In this document: positions 548-64,000 of the stretch, piece by piece
Numbering within the stretch: the first letter of the stretch is position 1
How the letters are laid out: the number at the start of each line of letters is the position of its first letter
NCBI GenBank assembly: GCA_051294905.1
Contig: CM119372.1
Span: forward strand, 434,001 to 498,000
Reading direction: 5' to 3'
DNA: 64,000 bases
Origin: Botryllus schlosseri
Lineage: Eukaryota
The notes under the pieces: model-generated
Database searches by the model: none
The model's input: only the letters and a program-made list of their open reading frames with translations
What the model was told of the DNA's origin: nothing
Made by a program: the position numbers and the translations under genes

Positions 548-2471
548 ATGGAAAACAGCAGGGTTCTATTCTCAATATTGTACTGGCTGTGCGCTTTCTT
601 GTTCGTTGTGGGACCTGCGGAGATAAAAAGCGCCGGGATAACCGTGGAAAACCTTTTTTCTTCGTGGATCGGACGGGAAGATGTAGACTTTGTCAACTTT
701 CACATCAAGAGGCTTTCCTTCACTGCTGCGGTGCACAGCGCTCTTCCTATCGGTAGGTTCTCATATAATAGGCACCGGATCCCGATTTCATCACACCAGA
801 CTTGTACGTACAAACTACTGCATAGATTTTCAAAAACCTTCAACTAGAACTCGGAACTATATTAATTTTTCACAACCTGCAACTAGAACTAGACCTAGTA
901 ATTTTGCAAAACTTGCAACTAGAACTAGAACCAAGTCCTTTAAAAGTCCTCAACTTAGAACTTTCTAAAACATGTTAGCTATAATTAACTATAATAACTG
1001 ATAATGCAAATTACTGATAGAATCGGCATTCCATAAGGATTGCGCTTCTAGTTTGGAATGAGAGAGGGAGAGGTTTCGACCCCAAAACTCACCCCCTGGC
1101 TACGCCACTTTTAGTAGTGATGATTCTGAGATAGAAATATATGCAAGAACATCACACAATAGAACACCGGTATCAAAATTCGTGCCAAACGACGTCACAT
1201 GTTTTTTAGTTCTTCTACTACTAAATTATTTTTTAACTAGAACCACTCACTTTTCAAAATCCATAACTAGAACTAAAACTACAAAAATAGCATTAGTTAG
1301 ATAACCGTCAACTAACTAGATTGATAGTTTATACGTGTCTGCATCACGACTGACAAAGTTCATATTCCAATACGTGTTTTCCTTTTTGCTTCTCCAACTT
1401 TTCAAAGTGCATGTCTCTATTTACTTCACCTAGGCCGAGGTGTCTGATTTCAATGACTACTCCAAGACGTCTCCACACCTCCCTGTCCTGTCATTGCATC
1501 ACAGTCTTGCTGCGATTTGAAAATGATATCATTATTAACGACAAACTCACATTTTTCCAGGGTATTTCCTCGGAATGACATGCGTTTCTGATTCTGCCGC
1601 TAACATCTCGAGTCTGTTCAACGGGAGTTTAGAGTTTGGTTGGCAACTTTACGTTTGCACATCCATACTTTTGCACATTGCAGTTTTGACTATCATCTTT
1701 TACTGGAGCATGGACGACTGGTCTAACCATCCAATAGTTAAAGATATCAGCTTATATGTCAACCATAGAGGCTCTGAGGTTGCTCGATCTTCATGGAGAG
1801 TCCGTGGTAATGAAATCAGTAATGAATTCAGACGTATTGATAAGTACGCAACATCTTACACTGGGTGGAGCAGATTGATTGTGACGGAAAACTGGATTAT
1901 GATGACTGCGCTCTACAAAGTACGATTAGTACCGCAAGATAAAGTGACTCTCGCAGTAATGCAGTCAGAAGAGCATGATATCTCCCCGGAATCGAACTCC
2001 ATGGTGCAGTTTTTAAGTTTGAGGATTAAACCAACCGTGTCGCCTCATTTAAAGCCGTTTTATGTCCGGATTTTGTCGACCGAATTTAAAGAACTGAAAG
2101 AAGCCGTGATGAGATCAATTTTGACTTTACCGAACATTAGTATTTTGCAGACAGTTGACGAAATGTTTTTAAAAGCATTCCGCGAACACATTCATAGTAA
2201 CCGCTCTTTCTCCTCTCTCACACCAGTAGAACAATGCATAGGCTGCATGCAGAATACAGCCCAAATCAAACTAGTTAAAAACTGTGACAGCTCCAGTCCG
2301 TGCCAGACTTGTGCGTGTAGGCCCTTGTGGTGTATCGATTGTATGGGCAGGTGGTATGCGAGTCGGCAAGATCGGACTAGACCGGAGACTTGGTTATCGG
2401 GAAACGCACCTTGCCCTATGTGCCGTGCTAAGTTTTGTATGTTGGATATATCGGTGCTAGCCAGTAATTGA
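548..2471 (+). CDS. TMEM129: E3 ubiquitin-protein ligase TM129, 2 coding exons (548-752, 1561-2471), 371 aa
   Basis: Exon 1 reads MENSRVLFSILYWLCAFLFVVGPAEIKSAGITVENLFSSWIGREDVDFVNFHIKRLSFTAAVHSALPI. A phase-1 GT-AG intron (753-1560) joins it in frame to GYFLGMT. The C-terminus has the TMEM129 atypical RING: CIGC...C..C.CRPLWC..CMGRWYASRQD...WL....CPMCRAKFCMLD. Confidence 0.93.
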
Positions 2472-21023: not shown

Positions 21024-21596
21024 TCAACTTAAAGCGTCCAATTGTTCCTGAATGGTTTCCAGTTTGTTATAGAAGTCAAGAAGTTCATCGTGATTCATTT
21101 CTATGACGCAGTCATTATCCCCGTTTCCAGATCCGAGCTGGAAAACCACATTTGGTTCTCCAATTCTTGATTTCGATCCTTGCGCGACTTGGAGCTTCAA
21201 ATGCCAGTCTATCGTGTTCAAACGATTGGAAGACAGAGTATTCTGTTTTAATGTGTTTGTAATTTCCCGTCCATATTTCTGCCACGCTTTAGACATAATA
21301 TCTGCAGTCTGCTCAGACAGATTATTTCCAAACTTTTGCGCCAGACTTTGGGGCTTTACGCCGTGATAAGCAACGTACATAAAGCATCGATGTATGGTTA
21401 ATAACATCAAATCAATGTCTTTCTCATCCAGACTCAAGACCTCTTTAAGTTTCGCCCGTTCGTCCGCGTTGAAGGCATCAGATATCTCCGCATTATTTTC
21501 GATAGTCTGTGCGACCCTGCTGATTATTTTCGGCAGCTTACTTTGGTCGACAGCTCTAAGCAATGAAAATCCGTTTTCTAATCCGGACAAATCCAT
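21024..21596 (-). CDS. COMMD10: COMM domain-containing protein 10, single coding exon, 190 aa
   Basis: C-terminal COMM domain L..IDWHLKLQVAQGSKSRIGEPNVVFQL...IEMNHDELLDFYNKLETIQEQLDALS; the N-terminal AF..DE..KL...LSL segment fits COMMD10. Confidence 0.88.
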   Translation of the reverse strand: MDLSGLENGFSLLRAVDQSKLPKIISRVAQTIENNAEISDAFNADERAKLKEVLSLDEKDIDLMLLTIHRCFMYVAYHGVKPQSLAQKFGNNLSEQTADIMSKAWQKYGREITNTLKQNTLSSNRLNTIDWHLKLQVAQGSKSRIGEPNVVFQLGSGNGDNDCVIEMNHDELLDFYNKLETIQEQLDALS

Positions 21597-23450
21597 TGCT
21601 GACGAATAGATTTATTTCCTCCACAGACAGAAACATATCCACTACACCGGAGTGATACGGTTTTCCGGGTTTCAGGATTCCGGTTATTGTGATTAGCCTC
21701 TGCCGGGATGTCCGACTAGTCTAACGAAATGATAAAATTACCGTACTTACAATTTTACGAAAACATTGACTAAATATTAGCGCCAAAACTGATACCGAAA
21801 TCGTATATTTTGGTGTCGTCAGCTGATCGAGCTGGTTAGCCCAACCCACGTGACTGGACTTCCCGATCTGGGCTTTTTGGTCTATTTATAGATGACCTGT
21901 CATAAAGATACGACTGGAAATGTTACTTACGATGTTTTCAGATAGTGGCTATTGCTTATTGGAACGGGTAAGTTAAATGTTGAACGCTTGAACGCGTCAT
22001 AAGCAAACGTTATCATTCGTTCCAATCGATTTGCACAGAAAGTGTCCTGTAAAATGAAAGTTTTTATATTCGGAATGCCTTCAGGTTGATCTTCGTCAGT
22101 CAAGCTTGAGTGATACCAGATTGACCAATCCGCTGGTGGAGTACGCTGAGCATCAATGAAGGACACTGGAAATTATAATCTGCAATCGTAATGGGAGTGC
22201 CACATTGCCATGGTCTTCTAGTAGGTCATGATATAGTCTAGGTGTATTTAATTGTGTTGTTTAAATCGTTTGAGTTACAGAAATAAAGTTATTTTGAGAG
22301 ACAGATTTGTCCCGTTCTATTTGAATGATCGAGCCAAACCATTAACTCTAACCTAATCTAACGCCGCAATTACTAGAGCCACAATCTAGCACCACAATTA
22401 CTATTTCGTTTCCATTAAAATTAAAAAAACAAACATGATTGGCCTCCTAGCAGAGTTGCGACCTCGTGAAAACTTTCCCACTCAGATGATGGCAGTAAAG
22501 TGTCGATATCGCGGACAAAATATTAATCGTTCCCATACAGATCATGGCTTTCCGGCGTAACCCCGTGAAGTTCTATATAGGATCAAAGTTCTGCATCTGT
22601 TTTTTCTCACACCTTATGAAGAGCTATTTGCGATCCCAGAACGTGGGACCTGGCAGCTGATATAAACATGGAGTGTAAATTTGTTCCGCTCTCTTTGCGA
22701 CCTACGAATAGAAAACAGTGCTAGTTTAAACCTTCACCCACATGGGCGTTGTGCCAGCAATCGCTCGTAATTAAGGACCGCTGCTTATGATATTTAGGAT
22801 GAGGACTAGTATATACGCTGTTCAGGTCATCATCATTTTATAATTTTTTTATCAAATCAATACACCACGAGATTGCGATATAATGAAAAGATAGGAGAAT
22901 GCCGAAACGACTTGGAGTAGTATTTTAATCAGACACACCCACCTTGGCCTACAGCATATAAATAAGAGGTATGGTGCACACACGATTTAAGAAATAATAA
23001 CATAAAAGGAAGTGACGAAAATGAATGCTGCGTGTGTCGGTTATAGGCGAGGTCGATATGTCAGATTGTGATCTGGTAATTTTGAGGGCACTTTAGTATT
23101 GACTCAGTTGAAACTGCTTGTATTTCGATTCGAATGTGGACATGATCGACGACAGCCGGATAGCCGACGAGATGCTGTTCCACACAGATCCGGCGAACTT
23201 GATAGAGCGATGCGTTTTTTATCCGTCTTGATCATGTAGCAGTTACATATTGTTCTTCGAGGAAGCACGTTTATTGTACTAATACTTGTGCCAGCCTGCA
23301 CATCACTTCTGAAATCCTATCTAAATAGTATAATTCTTTCAATTCTGCGTGACTTATATATTGTTTCTGTCGAATATTTTAAAAAGTTAGAACATTTCCA
23401 CTCGTGAATGTGATTTTGCAGCAATTCTTATACTCTGGCATAGCATCAAA

Positions 23451-41700: not shown

Positions 41701-44700
41701 AGTTATAATTAGGACCATGATTGATTGTTAGTTTAAAGACGCGGTGATAATTTAGCGAGTTATCAAGTATTCATTATTAAACGATTACATTTGTAGTTAC
41801 CACTAAATTAGCGTCAAATCGTCGCAGGCTTTGCTTCCAATAGCAGCAGTTATAAATCACAGTAAAAATTTCAAAAGCAACTGCTCACACGACACTTGAC
41901 TACTACTGCAAAATAAGCCAGGGTTTCTTAACCAGGGGTACATGGACCCCGTGGGGGTCTGTGGACTAGATTTATGGGGTCCATGAAAGGCTAACGTTGA
42001 AAATACAAGTATAAAACTATATTGACCAGCGCAACTTATTTTTTCATTTCCAGCGCACAAAGACAATTCGTCTCGCAGACATATTTGACGACGTAAATTT
42101 CTACTCAAGTAAACTTAGAAGCAGCGATTTCGAAGTAAGTGAAAAGGTAAGTCTTCTGGGCCTAAAAAGTGAAAACTATGAAGGAGAAATAGAAGTAATC
42201 TGTAATCAAGATCAATTGAGGCAGGCAGGCAATGTACCGCAAAATGGCGACGCTGCTTTGGTTGAAAGGTAAGTATGAACTCGGTCGTTGTTGATTTGGC
42301 TTTCAGAGTCGATGGCGTTGAAGCCCATTCGCGGACAACCCTGGAATATAATCAGTTAGATAGACAGTGAAACTTGCGAAGTTCCAAACTTACAGTTCCA
42401 TCGCATTCCAGACACCTTCCATCTTCAAACTGCGAATAACTTAAACAAGGATAGGACTCGAAAAAGCACGGGCTGTTGATCGACTCAGTGAAAAACGAAA
42501 CCGCTCTTTGATGATTGCAAGCCACAAAGTCCCGGGCACCGCTTGCGACTCCATCTAAGCCAATTACAGTCGAGAGTGCGTTCTGGAATATACGTGATAA
42601 ATAAGAACAAGATACTATATTATACTGCATGGGGTTACCATATACGTCCTCCGTTAGGAGGATTTGTCCTCATTTTTTAAGAAATCGAAAACGTCCTCCG
42701 AGTACGTCCAAATGGCTTCTTTCTTAAAAATTCGCCCTACCTTATAGCTCTGACATCCATGCCTGTATGGGCAAAACTGAAAAAGCCCATAAATGACGCG
42801 AAATCTGGATTTCGATGTCAGTGACTGCAACGATTACTAAAAAAAACCTTGGAGCGGGTCTTCCGGGAATCGATTTGGAAAAATGACCTTCTTTAGTCAA
42901 TAAAACAATATTTCTAGTCCAAATTTTCAAATTACCCGTAATCTCGTCCGATTTTTATAAATTTTGCAATTTGTATGAAGTATCCTCTTTTCCAGATCTC
43001 AAAATATGGCCGTAGTGATTTTCTGTTTGTTTATTTCAATGTTTCGGATGAGCTTGGACTCGGCTGGCTTTTGGATTGCACTACTATTTCGATAATTCCT
43101 TAATATCAAACTTCAATGCATTGCTATATACTGCAAATCACTGTTATCACTGTTATCTATGCTCAGTTGTCTATGCTCAGTGACCTGATCGCATCCCGGC
43201 TGCTGTCTTCCGTCATTTGGCCAAAAGTCGACATTTCCAGATTGTTCCGCGATTCCGAGTCCCACAAATCCGTTCGAGAGCAGAGTCTCTGCGTCGCTGT
43301 GAATCACGTCCACGAACGAAGCGTCGCCGGAGTCCAGCTGGACATCGCTGCCGGTTCCGGTGAAGTACGGGCCTGCCGGGTCCAGACCTGCCGGAGATGG
43401 AAAGGAAGGGTACGGTTGAGGATGAGGTCATATCTGAGAGAGATGAGGGTGGGATATGGACTTGTAAAAATTTCGGATTTAGACATTATCTCGATTTACG
43501 GTCATTTTTAAGCTATATGTCTCAATTGTAATAAGATGTATGAAAATGGACTTATTATCGAATTTTGACTTGGATTTCGACACGATACAAAATTGGATTA
43601 GATTTGGGTTTGAAAATTCAGGATTTTTTTCCGACGTGGATTTATGATCATTTTGAAGGTGGATTTAGATATGAAAATTCTGATACCGATTTGGAATTAG
43701 ATTTAAAACTCTGCTTGGGTGATATCGAATGCGCCGCATAATACCAATTTCCTTACCAGAAACAGTTTCTGGCCTTATTTTTCAAGTACCAGAAACCTTG
43801 CTATTCTTTAAGTTACCATGAAATGACTGTCTTGGCCGCGCGAGTCTCAAGTCATATGACTTGGCCGAGTCATGCGGTATGAGTCGAGTACAAGTCGAGA
43901 CAATACAAAAATTGACTAGAGTCAAGTCGAGTCATGTTCCTTATTCAAGAAAATGACTCGAGTCAAGTCGAGTCAATAAAAATCTCCACTCGACTCATTA
44001 CAGCCCTGTCCGGATTTGGATTTTTATATAGCAAATAATTTCATCTCTAACCTGTGATGCGTCCTATGGGCGCAGTATTCCCCACGTACCCGCAAGTGTG
44101 CGCCCCCAAACTGTGCCCGATGCAGTGAAACTTGTCTGGCGACATCCCGTACTTGCTCTGTTTAACGGATAATAATCTGAATCGTTACTCGCTTTTTAGG
44201 TTTAGTTTTAACGCTTCTTACCATCAAGTTTTGAATGAAGATCCCGGCTGTTGTTCCGACGATCTGTGTGTCCACTGCGGCGCTCATGTAGTTAACTTGG
44301 CCTGAGCCTCCGAACCAACCGACTCGTATCACGTTAGCGTTCTCTTTCTACGAAAACGCGGTGATTTGAGTTGGGTTATTATTATAATATATATATTATA
44401 TCTTCTAAAACACCACAAAACTGCGATACAATGAAAGATAGGAAGCCGTCGAAACGACTTGGAGTATTTCTGCGAAATCAGAAACACATACCGGCGTCTT
44501 GATTCTAGACCAGGGGTCCCCTCCTAGGCGACCACGAGCCCTTTTCAGGGGTGGCGTGAAAACTTATAAAATATTTGTGATCCATAAAAGTCTAATCGAC
44601 GATAATAAAAGTAGAGTAGAAGTAGAAGTAGAATTAGCGAATCCTAAGTAAGTTAAAAATTGAGTGTTCGAGTCTTAGTTTTGCCTAAAAATTGAAACTG

Positions 44701-49571: not shown

Positions 49572-51103
49572 AATTTTGTCGAATGCTGAAAATATATTAG
49601 TGAGGAATATCAAATTCGATTATTGGTAGAGTGGAGTTTAGAAATGTACAGTTGGTTATATTGAATTTTTAGTCTTACCATAAGTGTCACTACCGAATGT
49701 TTCTCCTAGTGTCACGCTGCTTCGTGCGATTTTGCCACTGAGCTATATAAACACGATTTTGCAAGCTAAACTTCAACATAATATTAGCCCGCATCATTGC
49801 GCACATCCGCTGCTTTCGGTGCTGAGCGTTTAACGAAGCCGCACACGAATATGACTGACTATTAGTGTGTTTGGTATTAATACGCAGTCAAATTCTAACC
49901 CCAAATTTTGGAATCCGAATCCATCCGGCTCCATGTGGCAATTTCAAAGTCCGAAAATTCCGGTGGTGAATTTCGTATTCTGTGTCCGAAAAACTCCGGC
50001 CAAAATCATGTTATAGCCTAATAGAATAACCGTGCTAAAATTCGACTGACTGTGCCGACCTTAAATTAGTAATCAACTCATCAAATTTTGAGCTGGGCCG
50101 CGGACTAGATGCATATAGGAAGCCCCGGAAGTTGCATCGATTACCCTACGGCGGGCCCGAGATCACTGTTTCTGTGGGCGGAATGGCGCTGAAAAATGTG
50201 ACTTCGGTGCTGGTTACAACTTATAACACACAACCACATACTCCTGAACCGGATCGTGACCACCTTTAGTCGATAGACGAAGCTTTGCTGGGGTGACGTC
50301 ATATTGATCGACAATGTGCTCATACTATAGAGATTGTAGATCCTACAATCTCTATACTCATACCTAATTTTGAAATCCGCTAATGGGCGCTAAAGAACGT
50401 CCGGAATTTGTGCCACTTGAATATGGTAACCCTAAATTAGGGTTACCATATTTGGGAATCGGGAAAGGGTGACGATTTTACCAAATCATTAAAGTTAGTT
50501 GACGGGAAGTGAAAACAGCCGATTTTGTAATATTCACTGAAAATCTTGTGGTCTTGACTAAAAAAAAAAGATCATCACTTTGACTCTACTCCCAATTTAC
50601 CCACTTTTTATTTTAATTTGGTGGTGTTGACATAGTAAAACTAAAGGTCATCACTTTCATCCGACTCCCGAATGACCCGCTCGAAAGTGCGTACTACTTG
50701 TTTCACGTCATTTATGCCGATTTTCAGTTGATTCCGTCCAATATCATACAGCTGTAAAAACTGTGAAGGAGGACGAATTGCCAAAAGGATGACATTTACG
50801 CGTCCTCGGTGGACATTTGCAATAGGTAACGTAATTCTAATCTAAGTTGTGAAATGTGTCTATACTGTCATTTGGCTTCTACTCTCATTCTGGTTTTCCC
50901 GAAAATGTTACAGTGGAACTGTGTAGTGTGAAACGAGCCAAGCTTGGTCGGACGCATCAACAAATCACTTTTTCTGTCCCTCTCTTACGATCTACCTATC
51001 AAGAGATTCGAGACCATGTAGGGCGCAGTTTGATCCGTTTATTGAAATCCAAATACGCAAGGCAATAATAATATGATGTCCCGTGCTAATGATGAATGAA
51101 GAG

Positions 51104-53970
51104 TTACGAGTCTGAAAACAAATCACATTGAAGCCGAACAGTACACGCTCCAAGTACGCAAGAACTCTAACCTTGTTGCTGGTCTTCAATCATTGCGATG
51201 AAGTTTTCAAAATCCTATAAATGTTGAAATTGGATTTAGTATCATTAACATAGTCGGTTTGATATTAACTTCATTGGATAAAAACACTACAAGGTTCCGA
51301 TACAATCAAATGATAGGAAGGTGTCGAAACGACTTGTAGTCGTCTTTTAAATCAGACACCCACCTGGGCCTAGACGGGCTACAGAATGACGGTCGACTAT
51401 AACTGCTGCTTTTGAGTAGTTCTAGAATTCTTTGAGTAATGCTAGGTCTAAATGCGAATTCTGAAAAGAGAGTATTTCTAGTTCTACCTGCAGATTTTGA
51501 AGAACACCAGTAATTCTAGTTGCCTAACAACTAGAATACACGTGTCGTCATATGGCCTGCATCGTGATACCGGTGTTCTGTTGTGAGATGTTCTTGCAGC
51601 CATTGTTAGATCACAGTCATCACTACTAAGCTGGGTTGTAACCAAGTCATACGGTTCGGAGTCCCAAGTCATTCTCACTTTTATAGTTTTGACTCGAGTC
51701 AAGTCAAGTAAAGTCATTTTCAATTCACCACCGATTCAAGTCCGAGTCCAAGTCAGCTGGTAGAGGGTCGAGTCCGGGTCATAGCGTTTTGACTCGAATC
51801 CGAGCTCAAATCATTACGTTGACTGTTCAGTTTTCAGTTCAATCCGGTTCCACCCACTTTTTCAACTCTGCCCGAGTGATATAGAATGGCCCGCATTCAT
51901 AATACAGTAATTTTCCTCAATCTTAGCAGTTTCTGGCCCTATTTTCCAAGTATCATGACTGGTAGACGAAATGCCAATCATATGGTGACTTTACTATCCT
52001 TCGAAGTTACAGTGAAATGGCTGTCTTTGGCCGTTCTAGTCTCGAGTCATATGACTTGGTTCAAGTCATGCACTATGATTTGAGCACAAGTCGAGTAGCC
52101 TAAATGCGAAAATTGACTCGACTCGACTCGAGCCATTTTACGCATTTGAATATATGACTCGAGTCAATTCGAGTCACCAAAAATCGCGAGTGTAACAATG
52201 ACGTTGCCAGGGGTGAGTTTTGGGGTCGGAACCCCTTTCATTTCCAACTCGAAACTATCCTTTTGAAATGCCGGGGAGATAGCGTAGTGGTGACGATAAG
52301 CGCCCACGAATCGGGCGGCCTGGTTCGAGTCCCATCGGAGGTTCATCTGGGCTTCTCTTCTTCTCGTTTTTACGGTGACAAAAAAGGCCAGACAAAGACC
52401 CGGCGAAAGAAAGCACTCTGAAGGAATGGAAAGAACTTGAAAGGGCCGTGGTTTCAAAAAAGATCAACTTCGAAAAGAACTGTTTCATCGGGCACTCTAG
52501 GCCGAGGTGGATGTCAGTCATAAAAGGATCGCAACTGCGTGTCGTTCGATATCCTCCTTTCTGTTCATAACATCGCATTGTACATTGTGTGTGACTTGTT
52601 CAGATGAAAAATATAACCTAACGATTATTGATTGATTGATCCCCAATATTTCTTGGCTCACTTGCAATTTAGTAATTAGTATTATCAGTTATCAGTTAGT
52701 TGTGTTTTAGTTTGTTAGTGTCGGATTATTTTAGGTCAGGGGTCACCAACACGCGGCATGCGACCCGCGACTTGATTTGAGGTTTCGGGAGAAAGCTAAG
52801 AAAACATTTTGAAATGCTGAAAGTGAAGTGCAATGACCGAAACACTGCCAGGACCGAGACGCTTAGAAAACGGCTTAGGGCAGTGGTTCTTAAACTTGGG
52901 GGTGCGCCCCTTTCTGAGGGCGTCAAAGCATCCGAACGGGGCACGGAGCTGCGGTCAACTGAAAATTTTTTCGCGTTCGCTGCGATTTACCTTTAATTCA
53001 TAGTTACAGTTATTCCTCTCTGTATAGTCTCGAATTCATATTGTAGGATTCTCTCATCAACATTCAAAACCACCCTTGCCATTAAACTATCCGTTGGGAT
53101 TGCTAACATTATGAATGCGTTTTGTGATTTGACGATAAGAGGGGGGGGCTAAATTTTTCAGGATCATAAAGGGGGCATGTCCAAAAAGGTTTGAGAACCA
53201 CTGGTTTAGGGCTTCCCTACAATACCAAGCATTACGTGAAGATGGTCTTTCAACTGGTAACGTATCTTGCTATAGCCTCCAGAAGTGGTTCCAGATATCG
53301 CGTACACTGCACAGCTCAGAGTTCAAAATATAATTTAATTGATGACAGTGATCTTTTGTTGTATTTTTGTTCCTTTAATAAAATATTAGTTCTTTTGTGG
53401 TCACTATATCCATCGCCTATGTTAGGTAGCACAGCGTTGTACTTACGTATAGTTTTAAAACGTACGCTCGTGGTTGCCTTCTTTATATAGATATTGAATT
53501 CATGCGGCCCGCGGCCGCTACGAAATTTTAAAAGTGGCCCGCGACCCGATTTGAGTTGGTGACCCCTGTTTTAGATGGTTAGTTCTAGTTCTAGTTGTAG
53601 CTGTTCAGCTTGAAAATCGAGTAGTTTACACAAGTCTGGCTACAGAGGTATTTCGACTGAAATCTCACCTCAACATCACCGTAATACGGTCCGTACGCCC
53701 ACGCACCTTTCATGGCGCCTTGGAAATACGACCTGTAATCAAATAGAATCGTGAGAAAGAGAGGTATTGTGAAACTCCTCATTCCAAGCACCTTAATTTC
53801 CAGTAGAGATCGTGAATGGAGTTTGCTCTCTGGCGAACGTATTTGGAGTACGCCAAGATGTTGTAGCCGAGTTGCTGCAGTCTTACGCTGTGGTACGTTA
53901 CGTGACCGGCCCTGGCCTCGTGAAAGAGGCATGACGTAATCAACACAAGCGCCACGATCAAGTTCCTCAT
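51104..53970 (-). CDS. Secreted styelin-like host-defence peptide precursor, 4 coding exons (53970-53792, 53732-53669, 51214-51172, 51111-51104), 97 aa
   Basis: Spliced translation: MRNLIVALVLITSCLFHEARA-GHVTYHSVRLQQLGYNILAYSKYVRQRANSIHDLYWKLRSYFQGAMKGAWAYGPYY-G-DVEDFENFIAMIEDQQQDS*. GT-AG introns of 59, 2454 and 60 nt with matching phases (2, 0, 1). AATAAA at 51043-51038. Confidence 0.72.
52273..52640 (+). mobile_element. tRNA-derived SINE
   Basis: A box TAGCGTAGTGG (52280-52290), B box GGTTCGAGTCC (52322-52332), non-tRNA body and (ATTG)n tail. A partial reverse copy lies at about 56336-56473. Confidence 0.75.
52737..53568. mobile_element. hAT-type MITE with nested MITE (52881-53203)
   Basis: TIR caggggtcaccaac...gttggtgacccctg, TSD ttttaggt/ttttagat; inner TSD gcttaggg/gtttaggg. 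Confidence 0.78.
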
Positions 53971-54045
53971 CTTGGATCTGGAATTTAGATTCAAACTCTC
54001 AAAGTTGATTCGCTCTTTCAATGAGCGTGCCTGGGTCTGATTTAC

Positions 54046-54096
54046 GTGGCATCATCAACATAGACTGCATCAAAGTATAGTACTATAGTATTATAA
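54046..54096 (-). promoter_or_regulatory. Candidate core promoter and short 5'UTR exon of the peptide gene
   Basis: TATAAT starts at 54095 and a CAGT initiator-like motif lies 29 nt downstream (A at 54066). Donor gtaaat at 54045 and acceptor ttccag ending 53978 define a 68-nt UTR intron. Confidence 0.4.
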
Positions 54097-54164
54097 GATA
54101 GGGCTAGAAATCGGAGCTGTTTGTGAAGAAGGCCAATTTCCTACTTTTAAGAACGATTTTGGGT

Positions 54165-54466
54165 TAAAGAGCTTCTTGGAGGTACGGAACGTCAATATAC
54201 AATTAAATAGTATATTGATATTGAAATGAACCCGAATATTTCGACTGACACTCGTCAGAGGTAATCATCAGCAACTAGTAGAGAATTGGAAAGAACATTG
54301 TATATCAACAATCGTATCTCGTCACAAGCATGAAATGACATCTCAAATAAGAGAGCGTTCAATGTACTATTTTAATATGGTACACAAACTCCTTTTCTTG
54401 ACAAAGCTTGGGCTGATTTATTTTGACAAAGGTCGACTCCAAGGCACACAGATGAAAGTGTGAGCG
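54165..54466 (-). mobile_element. Penelope-like element 3' fragment with hammerhead motif (54230-54262)
   Basis: Encodes [35 protein letters not shown] (GIY-YIG C-terminus), followed by acct-CTGACGA-gtgtcagtc-GAAATATTC-gggt and the tail. Confidence 0.8.
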
Positions 54467-56473
54467 TGAGTTAGTTGCAGTGCCCTGACCAGATTATTTT
54501 ATGTATTTTCAAAGTCAGTGCAACAGTAGCTTGCATTTAAGACCCGTTTTAATAAATTTAGCGCTCACTTTTTCAAGCTATAACATTACCATAATTGTTT
54601 ATGAAGCTACCAGAAATTGTTAGTGGACCCCTGTTGCCCAACCGTGCAGTCACGTGTTTTGATCGGTCTGTGGGTTAGCTATCTATAGTCAAAATGTTTT
54701 TCAACTCTGGCCGTTGTCTTGAATCGCTTTAAGTAGACTCAAATGGAGACAGGCTTTCGTAAATGTCGCCAGAACTATAGCAACTTCTTTGATTTACTGC
54801 TAGTGATAGGAGAGTACCGATGAGAACGTTCTATTGACGACAAACACTAAACTGCGGACCGGGCGGACGTTAACAGCTCTTACTGATTTTGTTATGGTCC
54901 CCACTACAGCTGTTTAGTACTGCAAGTTTTGTGACCCCCTATTTAGTATACGCCTTGTTAATCAAAACCTCGCCATTTCTTTATAGCGATACATTCGCGA
55001 ATAAACTTGCTTGGTACAGAAGCTATTCTTCAATGCTGCTCCTACATAGCTTCTAATTCTAATTCAAAAGAAGCTCCCTACCTGTCAACGTCTCTTCGCC
55101 AACAAAAATGCTGAAACTGGCTGCGGATTCGCTTCGACAGGTGACTGTATCCGGGAAATGGCGTCACAATCTGTCAACATAAACTAAGGAAATGGCGCGA
55201 ATATCCGGCTGTGCAAATTACCATATCCCCGTTTTTATTATTGCTGATATCGAAGGAGATTCGGAAAAAATTCCATATGGACCCTTGAAGCAGCATCAGT
55301 ATGTTCGACTCGAATTAGCAACTCAACAAACTCTTCATGCAAATCAATTCGATGTTCGATGATAACACCACCATGTGATTAAAGTTGGTGTGGGCACTGG
55401 GAAAAAATTATCTCCTTCACGCTTCAATTAGGTAGTCCAGCATGTTGTTACTTTCAAATCGTCTGAAGCAGTGATTTAACGCAAAACGCAAAACGCGGTA
55501 TCGGTGTGTGTTAATTGTGACGATATTTTATACCGAGATAGGTCACAAGATTGTGTAGCCTATGGTATATCTTGATGATGTCATCAAACACTGCGCCAAG
55601 TTTCAAGTTTGTCACTCAATGATAACGGTAGTAATTGCCCGGTTAGCCATGTTGTGTACTGGCTTAATGCGATCATTGCATGACATAGCTAGTTAGCGAA
55701 TCACCAGTGTTGAGCTTAGTCGAGCTGGAACGATAGCCTACTTGTGCAGCTATGTTATTGACTTGGCTGCATCCTTAGCAATTTAGTAGGAAATATAGAA
55801 CAACGTGAACAGCCGAACAACGTCGTTTATGACAGAACTGACAATAGACCGAAGTATCAGCATTTCAAAAACCGACTGCCATGAAAATAATGACTGGATG
55901 GCAGTCATTTGTAGACGTTCACCCCTCTAACTGTGAGAAGATGGTGGTTAATAGCTATACTATCCATCGGGAACCTGACAGTAAACGTTTCTGCAAGAAC
56001 GGTCTTGTGACTGACCTTGTGGTTTTTATGGCTCTACAACAGGACAACTAATTTTCGGCAATGACAGTCAATGATAGAACGAATAGTTGCAACCAAATCA
56101 AGAAACACATATCACTTTATAACCCCTCGTATAGGCTATACATCAGTGGTTCCCAAACTTTTCCAGCAGCGGCACACTAGAAAAATTCTAAAACGCTCGC
56201 GGCACACTTACAGAAAAAAGCTGCCGTTAAAAGAATATTTTCTGCACGTGCTAATATGCTTGTCTACACGAACATTTACGACTGAAACAATGTTGCATTG
56301 TTGTCCAACACACGAGCATTTCGTCGTCAATTTCAAATAATGATAATCGTTGAGTTACATTTTTCATCTGAACAAGTCACACACTATGTACAATGCGATA
56401 AGACACAATGCGATGTCATGAACAGTTCTTTTCGTTGTTGATCTTTTTGAAGCCGCGGCCCTTTCCTCTAGTT

Positions 56474-59362: not shown

Positions 59363-62300
59363 TGTTATGTTCGTGCATTTACGTTTTAGTGTCGTACAAC
59401 TCTTTCGTTCTATTGGATTAGTAATTACAGCCAATCATTATTTCCTCGTGTGTCGTGCTTGTATTTATACCCTGTGTTCTGTTGCCTCGTGGTCTTTCAT
59501 TTAACTGCACTCTGGACCGTGTCGCTGCCGTTAAGTTATTCTGCTGATAATATACTGATTCTGTATTGCAACCTCGTCGCATTGAGTTATTGTTCAAACA
59601 AGATCAAGAACATAACAATTGGTGTCAGAAGTCGGATTCATAGTTATTTCTGCGACGAAGATAAAGCATGGATTCAGGTATATTGAAGCTGCTCGAGAAG
59701 CAGCAGGCAATGATGGCGAGCTTACATGAAACAATGGCAAATCAAAATGCACAGCGGAAAGAAGATATGGAGCAGCAAAATGCTCGGCACAGAGAAGAGA
59801 TGGCACAGCAAAAGCAGCAGCATGAGCAAGCCATATCGCAATTAGCGCAGAGGTTGAGTCCCGGTGCGTCAACATCTGAAGCTACCGCTCCCAAGTTTGA
59901 TTCATTTGTGAAATCAAAGGAGAAATGGGACCAGTATCTGCAACGATTCAACCATCACCTAGCAATTTACGGCATTTCCAACATGGAGAAGAAAAGAGCG
60001 TGTCTACTCTCATGGGTTGGACCTGAAACGTACTCGCTCCTACGTAATTTGATTGGTGCTGCTGATGTCAGTGCGCAAACTTTCGACGCGTTGACTGAGA
60101 AGTTGTCTACACACTTCAAGGACTCAATTCATGTGCAAGCAGCCAGGTACGAATTTTACAACTGTAAAATGCAACCGGGACAATCGTACGCCGATTGGAT
60201 CGCTTCTCTACGCGGAATCTCCAAGGATTGCAACTTCATATGCTCAAGAGATGGCTGTGATCAGAGCTACGTTGATGAGCTAATGCGCGATCTCATCATT
60301 AAAGAAACGCCGCACGCGGATGTGAGACGGCATTGTCTAACACAAACCAATCCATCCCTTGACGACGTTCTCAAAGTAGCCGCAACATACGTGAGAACGC
60401 TGGAAACCGATAGGGTTATCCAGGGCGAGAGTAACGGTAAAGACACTTCCATCGTCAACAAAATGACGGGAAGTTATCAGAAGGGGAGAAAACCTTCCAA
60501 ATCCAACCAAGGCAACTTCCCGGAAAGACTGAAATCCTGCAGCCGCTGTTTCATCGATCACCAGAGAAAAGACTGTCAATATCGACATGCAGTATGTCAG
60601 AAATGTGGTCGTAAAGGTCATATCAAACCTGTGTGCATGTCAACCAAACCTAGTATCACGCAACAGGTCACATCCGTCAATTTCTGCTCAGTGCCACTCC
60701 TCTCCTTCGACATCGGTCAACTATATCGACGCGTAGGAAACCAGCTCTGGATCAACTCCAGCATCAACGGCATTCCGTTGCCGACACAGTGGGACACTGG
60801 TGCACCCCCCGCCATGGTGGGATTGACTGGGTACAAAACTTTGGGCTCTCCGAAACTCTCAGCATACCATTGCTCTTTCGTAGCGTATGGCGACAAGCCA
60901 CTGAAAGTGAAAGGTATTTGCACTGTAAGCGTGCAGGTGGGTTCTGAAGTTCGAGTTGGCTTAAAATTGGTGGTTCTCGACGAACACCGTGGGCAAAACA
61001 TTTTTGGTCTCGATTGGAGCGATGCTTTCTCCATGACCGCTAAGGGAACGTCTGCTTTGGATGCAATTTCTTCGCAGATGGTCAAATCGCAATCATGTAA
61101 TACTATTGACATTTCTGATTCGAACGACAAATTGGCATCTTTTCGGTCCAAATTTCCCTCCGTTTTCTCTAATGTATTAGGACGATGCACCAAGACAAAG
61201 GTGACAATTCACTTGAAAGCTAATGCCAAGCTGACAATTCACTTGAAAGCTAATGCCAAGCCCGTATTTAACAAGCCACGTCCTTTGCCTTTCGCAAGGC
61301 AAATCGCTGTTCAAACCGAATTGGATAGATTAGTCAATCAAGGTATCCTCGAACCAATCAATTACAGTGATTGGGCAGCACCAATTGTTGCCGTCACTAA
61401 ATCAAATGGATCAGTACGCATTTGTGGTGACTTCAAAGCATTGAATCAACAAATTCAGATAGATCAACATCCCCTGCCCTCCTTGGATGAGATCCTTCAC
61501 AAGTTACAGGATGGTTGTATTTTCTCGAAAATTGATCTTGCCGACGCTTATTTCCAGCTAGAATTAGATGATGATGCGAAGAATTTGTGTGTCATCAACA
61601 CGCAATTCGGTCTATTCCGTTATCGACGCATGTTTCGGAGTCGCATCTAGCCCCGCAAATTTTCAACGTTGAATTGATGCCATGATCGCCGGCTTACCCG
61701 GTGTTGCTAGTTTTATCGATGACATAATCGTTACTGGCATTGATGAACGCGACCATTTTCGCAACTTATCGCTACTCTTTGAGCGCCTCACCGAGTACGG
61801 TTTCACCGTCAACTTCGCGAAATGTGAATTTTTCAAAAGTAGTATCGAGTACCTTGGTCACATAATCGACAAGGACGGCAAACGCCCGTCTCACAAATCC
61901 GTTGAAGCAATCAAACAGTTGCCTAAACCTCAGGATGTTCGCCAGCTACAGGCATTCCTGGGCAAAGTCAATTATTATCGCGCGTTTATTCCTAATTTTA
62001 CGAATAAAGCCGCTGCTTTGTACCGCCTTCTTCAAAAAGACGCGAAATTCATTTGGAATACGGACTGTGACGCAGCTTTTCGCATTCTCAAAAACGACGT
62101 AATCGACGCTACGCAGTTAGCTCATTATGATGTAAACAAGCAGCTCATTTTGTCAACTGATGCTTCTCAATTCGGAATTGGCGCTGTCCTCTCAATCGAG
62201 CACAATGGCGAAGAGAGACCGATCGCGCACGCATCCAAAACACTTTCCGATTCGCAAAAATCCTACTCTCAAATCGAGAAGGAAGCTCTGTCAATCATTT

Positions 62301-64000
62301 ACGGAGTCACTAAATTTCGTCAATTCTTGTATGGTAGAAAATTTACGCTCGTAACGGACCACAAACCGCTTTTAGCTATTTTCTCGCCAGACAAGAAAAT
62401 CCCCGTGATTACAGCGCAACGCTTACAGCGATGGGCACTAACGCTCATGTCTTACCAATACGATATTCGCTATAAACCGACTAATCAGCACGGAAACGCC
62501 GACGGTTTATCTCGTCTACCAAAGGGTCCAGACCCTGAGTTTGACGAACTGGAAATTCGTGAAAACGCGGAGATCGTTCACGCTATTAATATGGCATTCG
62601 ATGGCTTACCGTTAACTCGCAATGAAATTCGCGACGCGACGCTGAAAGACGAAACCATGAAACTAGTAAAATTATCTGTCACTCATGGTAATTGGAATCC
62701 AAAGACGCAAATTGATGATTTTTCTTGGTTTTCGACTCGCAAACATTCGCTTTCTCTGCACGAAGACATAGTCATACTCAATATTGATGGTTTTCAGCGC
62801 GTAGTAATTCCGCAGTCACTTCGCTCGCGAGTCTTATCATTGTTGCACGAAGGACTTTGGGGTATCGCGAAAATGAAGCAGATGGCTCGACGTTACATCG
62901 CATGGCCTTCCATTAATCGCGACATTGAAAATCTCGTGAAGAGTTGCAACGCTTGCCGCAAGGTAATGAAAGCGCCTGATCGTCAGTATCGCGAATGGCC
63001 TAAAACTTCTGAAAGCTTTGAACGAATTCACTTGGATTTCGCAGGTCCAATAAACAATAAGATGTTTCTTGTCATCGTCGATGCGCATTCGAAATATCCT
63101 TTCGTTAAAGTAATGAATGTCGGTTCTACCACAACCTTGTGTGTGGTCAACGCTTTGAGGGAAGTCTTCTCTATCGAAGGCTTGCCCATAACAATTGTCA
63201 CGGATGGCGGGCCGCAATTCACATCGAATGAATTCGATACGTTTTGTTCTAATTTGGCAATCAGCCATATCGTATCACCGTCTTTTCACCCTGCCTCGAA
63301 CGGGGAAGCGGAGCGTTTCGTCCAGACTTTGAAAGCTGGATCAATAAAAAATTGCGACGGGGGAAAAGATCTCAACTTCGCGCTCCAAACACTTCTCGCT
63401 ACGTACCGATGTGCACCGCACCCGGGCATAGACTGGAAAACGCCTGCCGAGATTTTACATGGTCGACAGCCGCGCAATTTGTTAAGTTTGTGCTCGCCCT
63501 TCGACAAATCAAAACCCGTTACGCCTGGACAATCAGTCACTCATTTCGAGATTGGTTCCGCGGTTTACGCTCGCAGTTACCGAAGCGGACCAAAGTGGGT
63601 TGCTGGCGTGGTGACGGAAATACTGGGGCGTGTTGTGTACATTATAAGAACAGATCATGGGTATTGGAGAAGGCATAAAAACCAACTCCAACCACGCTTG
63701 ATTTCCACAAGTAATGATACAGCCACACAGGAAGTTGCTCAGCCTCAACAGTCCCAAGCTGAGCAACCATTGGTCAGGAATAGGGCACAACGCCCTGCAG
63801 CTAGTCCTGCCCGTACGTCGGGTAGACGTTATCCTCTCAGGAACAGAAAGCAAACCGATTTCTACAGACCTACGTAAATGTGGGCAACCCTCTCAACTTA
63901 TAGGGGAGGACTGTTATGTTCGTGCATTTACGTTTTAGTGTCGTACAACTCTTTCGTTCTATTGGATTAGTAATTACAGCCAATCATTATTTCCTCGTGT
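59363..64000 (+). mobile_element. Ty3/gypsy LTR retrotransposon (Mag-like); 5' LTR 59363-59617, 3' LTR from 63912 (cut by the window end)
   Basis: LTR ends tgttatgttc...gaacataaca. PBS tggtgtcagaagt (59620-59632) is complementary to the tRNA-Leu 3' end; PPT aggggagga at 63902-63910. Domain order is Gag-PR-RT-RH-IN. Confidence 0.95.
59668..63877 (+). pseudogene. Gag-Pol polyprotein disrupted inside RT
   Basis: Two Gag zinc knuckles (CSRCFIDHQRKDC, CQKCGRKGHIKPVC), protease DTGA, RT WAAPIV..RICGDFK..FSKIDL and FIDD, RNase H TDAS/YSQIEKEAL, integrase HLDFAGP/VTDGGPQF/SNGEAER. Frameshift near 61633 and in-frame TGA at 61670-61672. Confidence 0.9.

Follow-up and report, generated by a model that had tools for sequence, protein, structure and literature searches.

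A stretch of 64,000 nucleotides from Botryllus schlosseri (assembly GCA_051294905.1, contig CM119372.1, positions 434,001 to 498,000, hereafter the window, in which all positions without a contig name are counted) contains a small gene of four exons which, as seen by RNA sequencing (RNA-seq), is real, spliced and transcribed from the minus strand. It is well supported by the reading of its sequence that the gene encodes a predicted secretory prepropeptide of 97 amino acids (aa), in which a small tyrosine-rich peptide would be followed by a charge-masking acidic tail. By analogy with known precursors, the product could be a host-defence-type peptide of secretory granules, acting at the membrane or through the chemistry of its tyrosines; we hold this reading tentatively, at a little under an even chance, and the step from a secreted, charge-masked propeptide to an antimicrobial peptide (AMP) is unproven. 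In B. schlosseri, a model species in research on allorecognition and innate immunity, a second expressed, secreted and charge-masked peptide without relatives is a concrete candidate for the bench. As it stands, the product is a lineage-restricted small secreted protein of an ordinary kind, and the value of the work lies in the verified gene model.

The expression and the splicing of the gene were analyzed in sequencing runs. Twenty-four runs were listed for the stretch formed by exons 1 and 2, and four of them (X5, X8, X18 and X24) were aligned to positions 50500-54500. X5, X8 and X18 originate from three different studies and X24 is on record as single-cell RNA-seq; RNA of the gene was found in all four aligned runs, which come from four studies. 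In sixteen runs from six studies, three of which were aligned, 0.59-0.69 of the sampled words were present, a share close to that expected of the spliced form (193 of the 302 possible words, by our own arithmetic). Each of the three exon joints was present in one contig of X5, one of X8 and one of X18. The same joints were detected in raw reads of X24: 51111/51172 in 39 reads with 20 start places, 51213/53668 (51214/53669 when the cut is moved by +1) in 41 reads with 26 start places, and 53730/53790 (53732/53792 when the cut is moved by +2) in 41 reads with 18 start places. In the X24 reads spanning the junctions, the first mate was always on the plus strand and never on the minus strand; because of this, and because the introns are oriented GT-AG, the transcript is assigned to the minus strand.

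These results are in full agreement with a gene model proposed earlier from the letters alone (the first-pass annotation). This model joined four minus-strand exons in frame into 97 codons, and its coordinates proved exact in the sequence as in the RNA: each of the predicted joints 53792/53732, 53669/51214 and 51172/51111 was recovered to the letter in contigs of three runs, one from each of three studies, and exon 2 does join the predicted exon 3 in spliced transcripts, as seen in three contigs and 41 raw reads. A single contig of X5, of 365 letters, spans all four exons in order. All three introns are GT-AG, and a reading-frame check revealed that retention of intron 1 or of intron 2 leads to a stop after a few codons. 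The open frame occupies about 80% of the message of ~365 nucleotides (nt).

At the 3' end, the depth of X24 falls past the AATAAA from 18.7 (bin 51036-51169) to 0.53 (bin 50902-51035). The X8 contig reaches 51028 and one X18 contig extends to 50990; the 3' end of the RNA is near 51030. The sole coding difference among the runs is a T>C change at 53884, carried by one X18 contig and by 4 of 5 X24 reads. By reading of sequence and RNA this change is synonymous (GTA to GTG, Val29), in what is a weak sample.

The 5' end has another structure. In all contigs the match to the genome breaks off at 53980/53977, just after a ttccag acceptor, with three ambiguous letters, and the true acceptor AG is probably the one at 53979-53978. 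Beyond this point the contigs carry loose 5' letters, 14 in X5 and 60 in the 197-letter contigs of X8 and X18, which lie nowhere within 50500-54500, and the depth over 53984-54117 is 0 in all four runs. Because the matches stop at an acceptor, the loose letters lie elsewhere and the depth beyond is nil, the message is joined to an upstream piece, which would be a spliced leader or else a non-coding exon that was not seen. The excerpt of PMC3691228 refers to trans-splicing in B. schlosseri and cites references for it; a Botryllus spliced-leader sequence was not found in the literature searched. TATA-like and AATAAA signals had both been proposed to flank the gene. The AATAAA is retained, the depth falling just past it, whereas the TATA-like site near 54096 lies outside the contiguous first exon and is absent from the mature RNA; in the case of trans-splicing, this site could still drive an outron. 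Immediately upstream, positions 54118-54385 are occupied by a very high-copy repeat, with word depths of up to ~25,000 in RNA-type contigs and reads on both strands. This repeat could hide an upstream exon.

The predicted precursor is made of four parts. The first 21 residues (MRNLIVALVLITSCLFHEARA) would form the signal, with a positive n-region (MRN), a hydrophobic core of 13 residues and A-x-A before the cut, which was placed by eye between ARA and G according to the -3/-1 rule of von Heijne; the N-terminal secretory signal of the precursors of linear cationic alpha-helical AMPs is thus predicted here. The putative mature segment comprises 56 Cys-free residues with 4 Arg, 3 Lys, 3 His and 1 Asp (net +6). 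It contains 9 Tyr (16%), 2 Trp and 1 Phe, and its C-terminal part includes the Gly- and aromatic-rich stretch GAWAYGPYY. Gly78 stands between this segment and a tail of 19 residues, with 4 Asp, 3 Glu and no basic residue (net -7), so that the whole propeptide of 76 aa has a net charge of -1. The residue counts match those announced by the first-pass annotation for the signal, the Cys-free cationic segment, the Gly and the acidic tail, and its description of the tail as charge-matched holds (+6 versus -7).

The excerpt of PMC10608444 describes AMP precursors whose mature peptide is neutralized by a short anionic propeptide, 15-30 residues long, at the C-terminus. The tail of 19 aa and charge -7 lies within this length and offsets the charge of the cationic segment, and the layout of signal, cationic Cys-free middle, Gly and acidic tail, put forward earlier as that of a secretory AMP precursor, is compatible with the class as presented in this excerpt. 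The sea-urchin centrocins and strongylocins, cited there as well, share the short anionic propeptide (15-30 aa) neutralizing a cationic peptide, but they belong to another phylum and are unrelated in sequence, the strongylocins being Cys-rich and the centrocins two-chain, and the principle alone is common. The clavanins and clavaspirin of Styela clava resemble the putative peptide in being His-bearing and helical, and are described as amidated peptides of haemocytes (PMC10608444, excerpt); they are set apart by their description, with 23 aa rich in His and Phe. In Ciona, haemocytes make Ci-MAM-A and Ci-PAP-A from precursors in which a signal and a cationic helix are followed by an anionic extension at the C-terminus.

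Another comparison is with botryllin, which the excerpt of PMC9966394 presents as the only gene-encoded antimicrobial peptide described from B. schlosseri, with a precursor of 158 aa, a mature peptide of 37 aa and a charge of +11.2. The two botryllin primers tested (from PMC9966394) both match the genome of the window exactly, ~2.2 kb apart, on contig C11. The botryllin gene located in this way (C11:9,115,218-9,117,435) is made of coding exons of 149, 103 and 121 nt and a fourth, last one, and its product of 158 aa contains a core of 37 residues with a charge of +11 and two His, in agreement with the same excerpt. The primer matches and this product identify the host as B. schlosseri or a species very close to it. 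At a second site, 55 kb away (C11:9,172,179), a primer matches with one mismatch and part of the DRDEYDGALQQ... exon recurs identically, so that botryllin seems to be present in duplicate in the assembly, a point left open in the excerpt of PMC9966394; a botryllin paralogue is mentioned in that of PMC13635237.

Botryllin is thus distinct from the gene described here, which lies on contig C2. The identity with botryllin which had been considered possible is contradicted by the separate locus on C11, by the precursor length (158 versus 97 aa) and by the lack of sequence similarity: local alignment of the whole proteins gave a score of 26, reached by 882 of 2000 shuffles, and the scores were reached by 1974 of 2000 shuffles for the signal-less proteins, 1521 for the tail against the pro-region and 1793 for the mature parts. 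Both are nevertheless small secreted precursors of the same genome, predicted to consist of a signal, a cationic, Cys-free, helical peptide and an acidic C-terminal pro-region, and both genes have four coding exons. They differ in the mature peptide (37 aa and +11 in botryllin, 56 aa and +6 here), in the charge per residue (0.30 and 0.11), in the peak and mean hydrophobic moments (0.56 and 0.38 in botryllin, 0.45 and 0.32 here) and in the pro-region (89 aa and -22, against 19 aa and -7). Finally, the botryllin core is bounded by RRRRR upstream and KK downstream, whereas such basic sites are absent here.

How the predicted precursor might work can be outlined as follows. The signal would be removed after Ala21. 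The resulting propeptide of 76 aa would be nearly neutral, the amphipathic acidic tail of 19 aa (-7) offsetting a helical Tyr-rich segment of 56 aa (+6, plus 3 His), and this masked form would be stored in secretory granules. On release, the tail would be cut between Gly78 and Asp79, after which the Gly could serve in C-terminal amidation. The freed peptide would then act extracellularly as a host-defence-type effector, either by binding membranes through its long helix, or by serving through its nine Tyr as a substrate of the 3,4-dihydroxyphenylalanine (DOPA)/phenoloxidase system, or both.

For the membrane part of this scheme, an AlphaFold2 model of residues 1-38 of the putative mature peptide consists of one helix (residues 4-37, mean pLDDT 86.8). 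The mean hydrophobic moment (0.32 on the Eisenberg scale, in windows of 18 residues) was reached by 78 of 2000 shuffles. Together with the net charge of +6, these values would describe a candidate cationic helix, with both moments below those of botryllin. Several observations weigh against the host-defence assignment. The model was computed on a fragment of 38 residues as a single sequence without alignment, a setting which favours helices, and the peak moment of 0.45 was reached by 545 of 2000 shuffles. The charge density and the moments are well below those of botryllin, the proven peptide of this species. None of KK, KR, RR, RK or RxxR occurs in the 97 residues; KYVR at residue 43 is the single instance of [KR]xxR, and no usual cleavage site precedes the tail. 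Therefore the cut between Gly78 and Asp79 would need a protease which does not use basic sites, and removal of the tail and amidation are purely inferred, by analogy with the Styela peptides. The AMP reading is thus weakened, as the charge density is low, the peak amphipathicity ordinary and a known cleavage site lacking. In addition, the aligned runs carry no cell labels; no relative was detected (see below), so that nothing ties the gene to a tested function; and, strictly, an in-frame start could lie upstream in an unseen 5' exon.

The first-pass annotation had called the peptide styelin-like. In styelin precursors the signal precedes the peptide, which is followed by a Gly and then by an acidic extension, and in other AMP families the prepro region is conserved and the core hypervariable. 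The gene could accordingly be imagined as a very divergent true member of the styelin family, in which signal and acidic propiece were kept by descent and the mature part was replaced or elongated; we consider this descent unlikely, though not negligible, and its probability is already contained in that of the host-defence reading. The order of the parts (signal, Gly-initiated peptide, Gly, acidic tail) is the same on both sides. The tail also fits the pattern E[DE]FxxF[IM]xxIE, which we presume to occur in styelin extensions; neither the motif nor three variants of it were mentioned in the literature searched.

The two genera, Botryllus and Styela, are members of one family, the Styelidae (PMC9966394, excerpt), which is compatible with such a descent, and styelins A-E of Styela clava are, like the putative peptide, linear and Cys-free peptides of a styelid ascidian. 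The published family features, however, are absent here. Styelins are described as Phe-rich, C-amidated peptides of 31-32 aa with DOPA and other modified aromatic residues (PMC10608444, excerpt), and share with botryllin a KHK motif and more than 30% identity (PMC9966394, excerpt). Against the mature length of 31-37 aa in this family, 56 aa lie here between the signal cut and Gly78; KHK is absent from the 97 aa; instead of being strongly cationic and Phe-rich, the 56 residues have a charge of +6, with 9 Tyr and a single Phe; and the identity of more than 30% between mature peptides is not seen with the product of the botryllin locus, which alone was compared by alignment, the styelins being compared by description. 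The shuffle counts given above for the whole, mature and pro-region alignments with botryllin equally argue against kinship. The earlier label thus stands for the layout of the precursor and falls for the features in print, and the gene is not a demonstrable member of the styelin or botryllin family. If the styelin kinship were true, it would show how far the core of such a peptide drifts while its prepro parts stay.

The composition of the mature segment opens another possibility. With so much Tyr, the peptide may be a substrate of the DOPA/phenoloxidase system, a role which within the host-defence reading would accompany membrane binding or replace it. Taken alone, this chemistry would make the product a secreted, non-lytic Tyr-rich peptide, cross-linked by phenoloxidase or peroxidase in clotting, tunic repair, adhesion or melanic rejection. 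Besides the 16% Tyr, the 2 Trp and the GAWAYGPYY stretch, the modest charge is in agreement with such a role. Several peptides containing DOPA or trihydroxyphenylalanine (TOPA) are reported from tunicate blood cells in the excerpt of PMC3039461. According to the excerpt of PMC9966394, morula cells contain phenoloxidase and polyphenol substrates, and the styelins, as DOPA peptides, are possible phenoloxidase substrates in the granules of these cells, an idea raised for botryllin too. On the other hand, the segment has no repeats and no similarity to known DOPA proteins in Pfam and phmmer searches, and a long regular helix, as modelled by AlphaFold2, is atypical of adhesive or cross-linking peptides. 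A purely chemical role has, in our estimation, a low probability. If the peptide does serve as a tyrosine donor, a gene-encoded substrate would be added to the morula-cell phenoloxidase system.

The same precursor could in principle release a signal. A hormone, neuropeptide or cytokine-like peptide ending in an amidated Tyr would also require a signal peptide, a C-terminal piece to be discarded and, before it, a Gly placed for amidation, all of which can be recognized here. Against it stand the lack of dibasic sites, the 56 Cys-free residues, an unusual length for a signalling peptide, and the absence of any match to a Pfam hormone family, and conservation outside the own genome could not be shown; we regard a signalling peptide as very improbable. 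Two short resemblances were followed as candidates, one to neuropeptide Y and one to serum amyloid A, and both were dropped as they had no Pfam support.

Relatives of the protein were searched for in databases and in the genome itself. Pfam searches with exon 1 (59 aa), with the mature part of exon 1 (38 aa) and with exon 2 (21 aa) returned no family at E values up to 1 or 10. A word-indexed search with exon 1 in 5.8 billion clusters (lengths 32-104) gave no candidate, and the ESM Atlas gave no usable match. In phmmer, exon 1 produced two matches at E ≤0.001 (1e-4 and 3e-4) among 1.84 billion representatives; they were judged spurious, both being internally repetitive proteins which align one piece of ~20 residues in 5-6 stretches. 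Styelins were not returned by the protein searches with exon 1, and the peptide's own sequence was not mentioned in the main texts of the literature. These large searches used translations of single exons and not the joined 97-aa product, so that relatives recognizable only by the tail or at full length would be missed. As the searches did not return the protein itself, the databases seem to hold little tunicate data, and the absence of matches is thus weak evidence of absence in other ascidians.

Within the own genome, protein and DNA searches with exon 1 revealed one live copy and one decayed remnant of exon 1. The remnant (C2:1,077,985-1,078,353, minus strand) lies ~590 kb away on the same contig and retains parts of exon 1 and intron 1, in three pieces with 78-89% identity; it has no ATG, contains stops and is interrupted by the insertion of a GACTCGAGTC-rich repeat of a kind also present in intron 2. 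Exons 2, 3 and 4 were not found within 10 kb downstream of the remnant. The protein of exon 2 matched its own locus only, and a back-translated pattern of exon 3, allowing ≤3 mismatches, fitted nowhere else in the genome. Judged by these sequence searches, the gene is single-copy and has no detectable relatives.

This isolation would be expected of a young orphan gene, transcribed and perhaps translated, with no settled function and a layout which is a by-product of its composition, and the weak amphipathicity agrees with such an origin. The clean splicing of three introns, the RNA in all four runs, the well-formed signal and the close charge match of the two parts speak against it, and the single coding variant, although in a weak sample, is synonymous. 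An orphan of this kind is in our view an improbable explanation.

The host-defence reading can also be put in its most ambitious form. The gene would then found a new botryllid family of 56-aa, Tyr-rich, amidated blood-cell peptides, derived from the styelin lineage by signal and propiece and provided with a new core, which would act both as a membrane helix and as a DOPA/phenoloxidase substrate of the cytotoxic, melanising reaction of morula cells, the tail being freed by a protease cutting between Gly and Asp. To this combination as a whole a small likelihood is given.

Intron 2 had been described as filled with transposons, and a search for genome copies confirmed that it is filled with dispersed repeats. 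In the genome of 495.5 Mb, the intron gave 18,700 first-look candidates, 40 of which were scored. An element of ~0.8 kb at 52737-53575 accounts for ~40 scored copies with 80-84% identity, on many contigs including most of the large ones, and the depths of the RNA runs over the repeats of intron 2 are in the thousands. The ends of this element appear inverted by eye (ggggtcaccaac...gttggtgacccc), which suggests a non-autonomous DNA transposon; inverted arms were not reported for it by the repeat search. Positions 52242-52375 resemble, by eye, a short interspersed nuclear element derived from a tRNA, and the ARAGORN and Rfam scans of the locus detected no tRNA or RNA family. Over 52376-52643, hundreds of X24 reads of the opposite strand continue into unlike sequence; they are therefore transcripts of repeat copies located elsewhere.

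The features of the gene and of its neighbours, which mark the window as DNA of an animal, are listed in Table 1. UTR: untranslated region; ORF: open reading frame.

Table 1. Positions in the window of the peptide gene, its parts and the neighbouring genes.
Feature	Position	Strand	Basis
Start codon ATG	53970	-	sequence
5' UTR stretch behind splice acceptor	53971..53980	-	genomic ttccag; contig matches end at 53980
Coding exon 1, 179 nt: ATG, predicted 21-aa signal (53970-53908), first 38 residues of putative mature peptide	53792..53970	-	ORF and RNA joint 53732/53792
Intron 1, 59 nt, GT..AG	53733..53791	-	sequence; 3 contigs and 41 raw reads
Coding exon 2, 64 nt: remainder of cationic, aromatic-rich segment RSYFQGAMKGAWAYGPYY, Gly78, tail start DVE	53669..53732	-	ORF and RNA
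Intron 2, 2454 nt, GT..AG, largely dispersed repeats	51215..53668	-	sequence; 3 contigs and 41 raw reads
Coding exon 3, 43 nt: acidic tail DFENFIAMIEDQQQ	51172..51214	-	ORF and RNA
Intron 3, 60 nt, GT..AG	51112..51171	-	sequence; 3 contigs and 39 raw reads
Exon 4: last two codons (D, S), stop, 3' UTR with AATAAA	51028..51111	-	sequence; X8 contig end at 51028
Stop codon TAA	51106-51104	-	last sense codon ends at 51107
AATAAA	51043-51038	-	sequence
TMEM129 gene, intronless or nearly so, 310-aa frame	1539-2471	+	Pfam Tmpp129, E 1.7e-94, nearly whole model
COMMD-family gene, 195 aa, seemingly one exon	21024-21611	-	COMM_HN and COMM domains (Pfam)
Pancreatic-type lipase exons, next gene downstream, same strand as peptide gene	42352-43427	-	Pfam Lipase, E 4e-23 and 6e-16
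Ty3/gypsy-type retroelement, two long frames	59665-63877	+	Pfam

In the retroelement, the first frame (661 aa) comprises gag, protease and the start of the reverse transcriptase, and the second (734 aa) the end of the reverse transcriptase, RNase H and integrase, the reverse transcriptase being split between the two frames.

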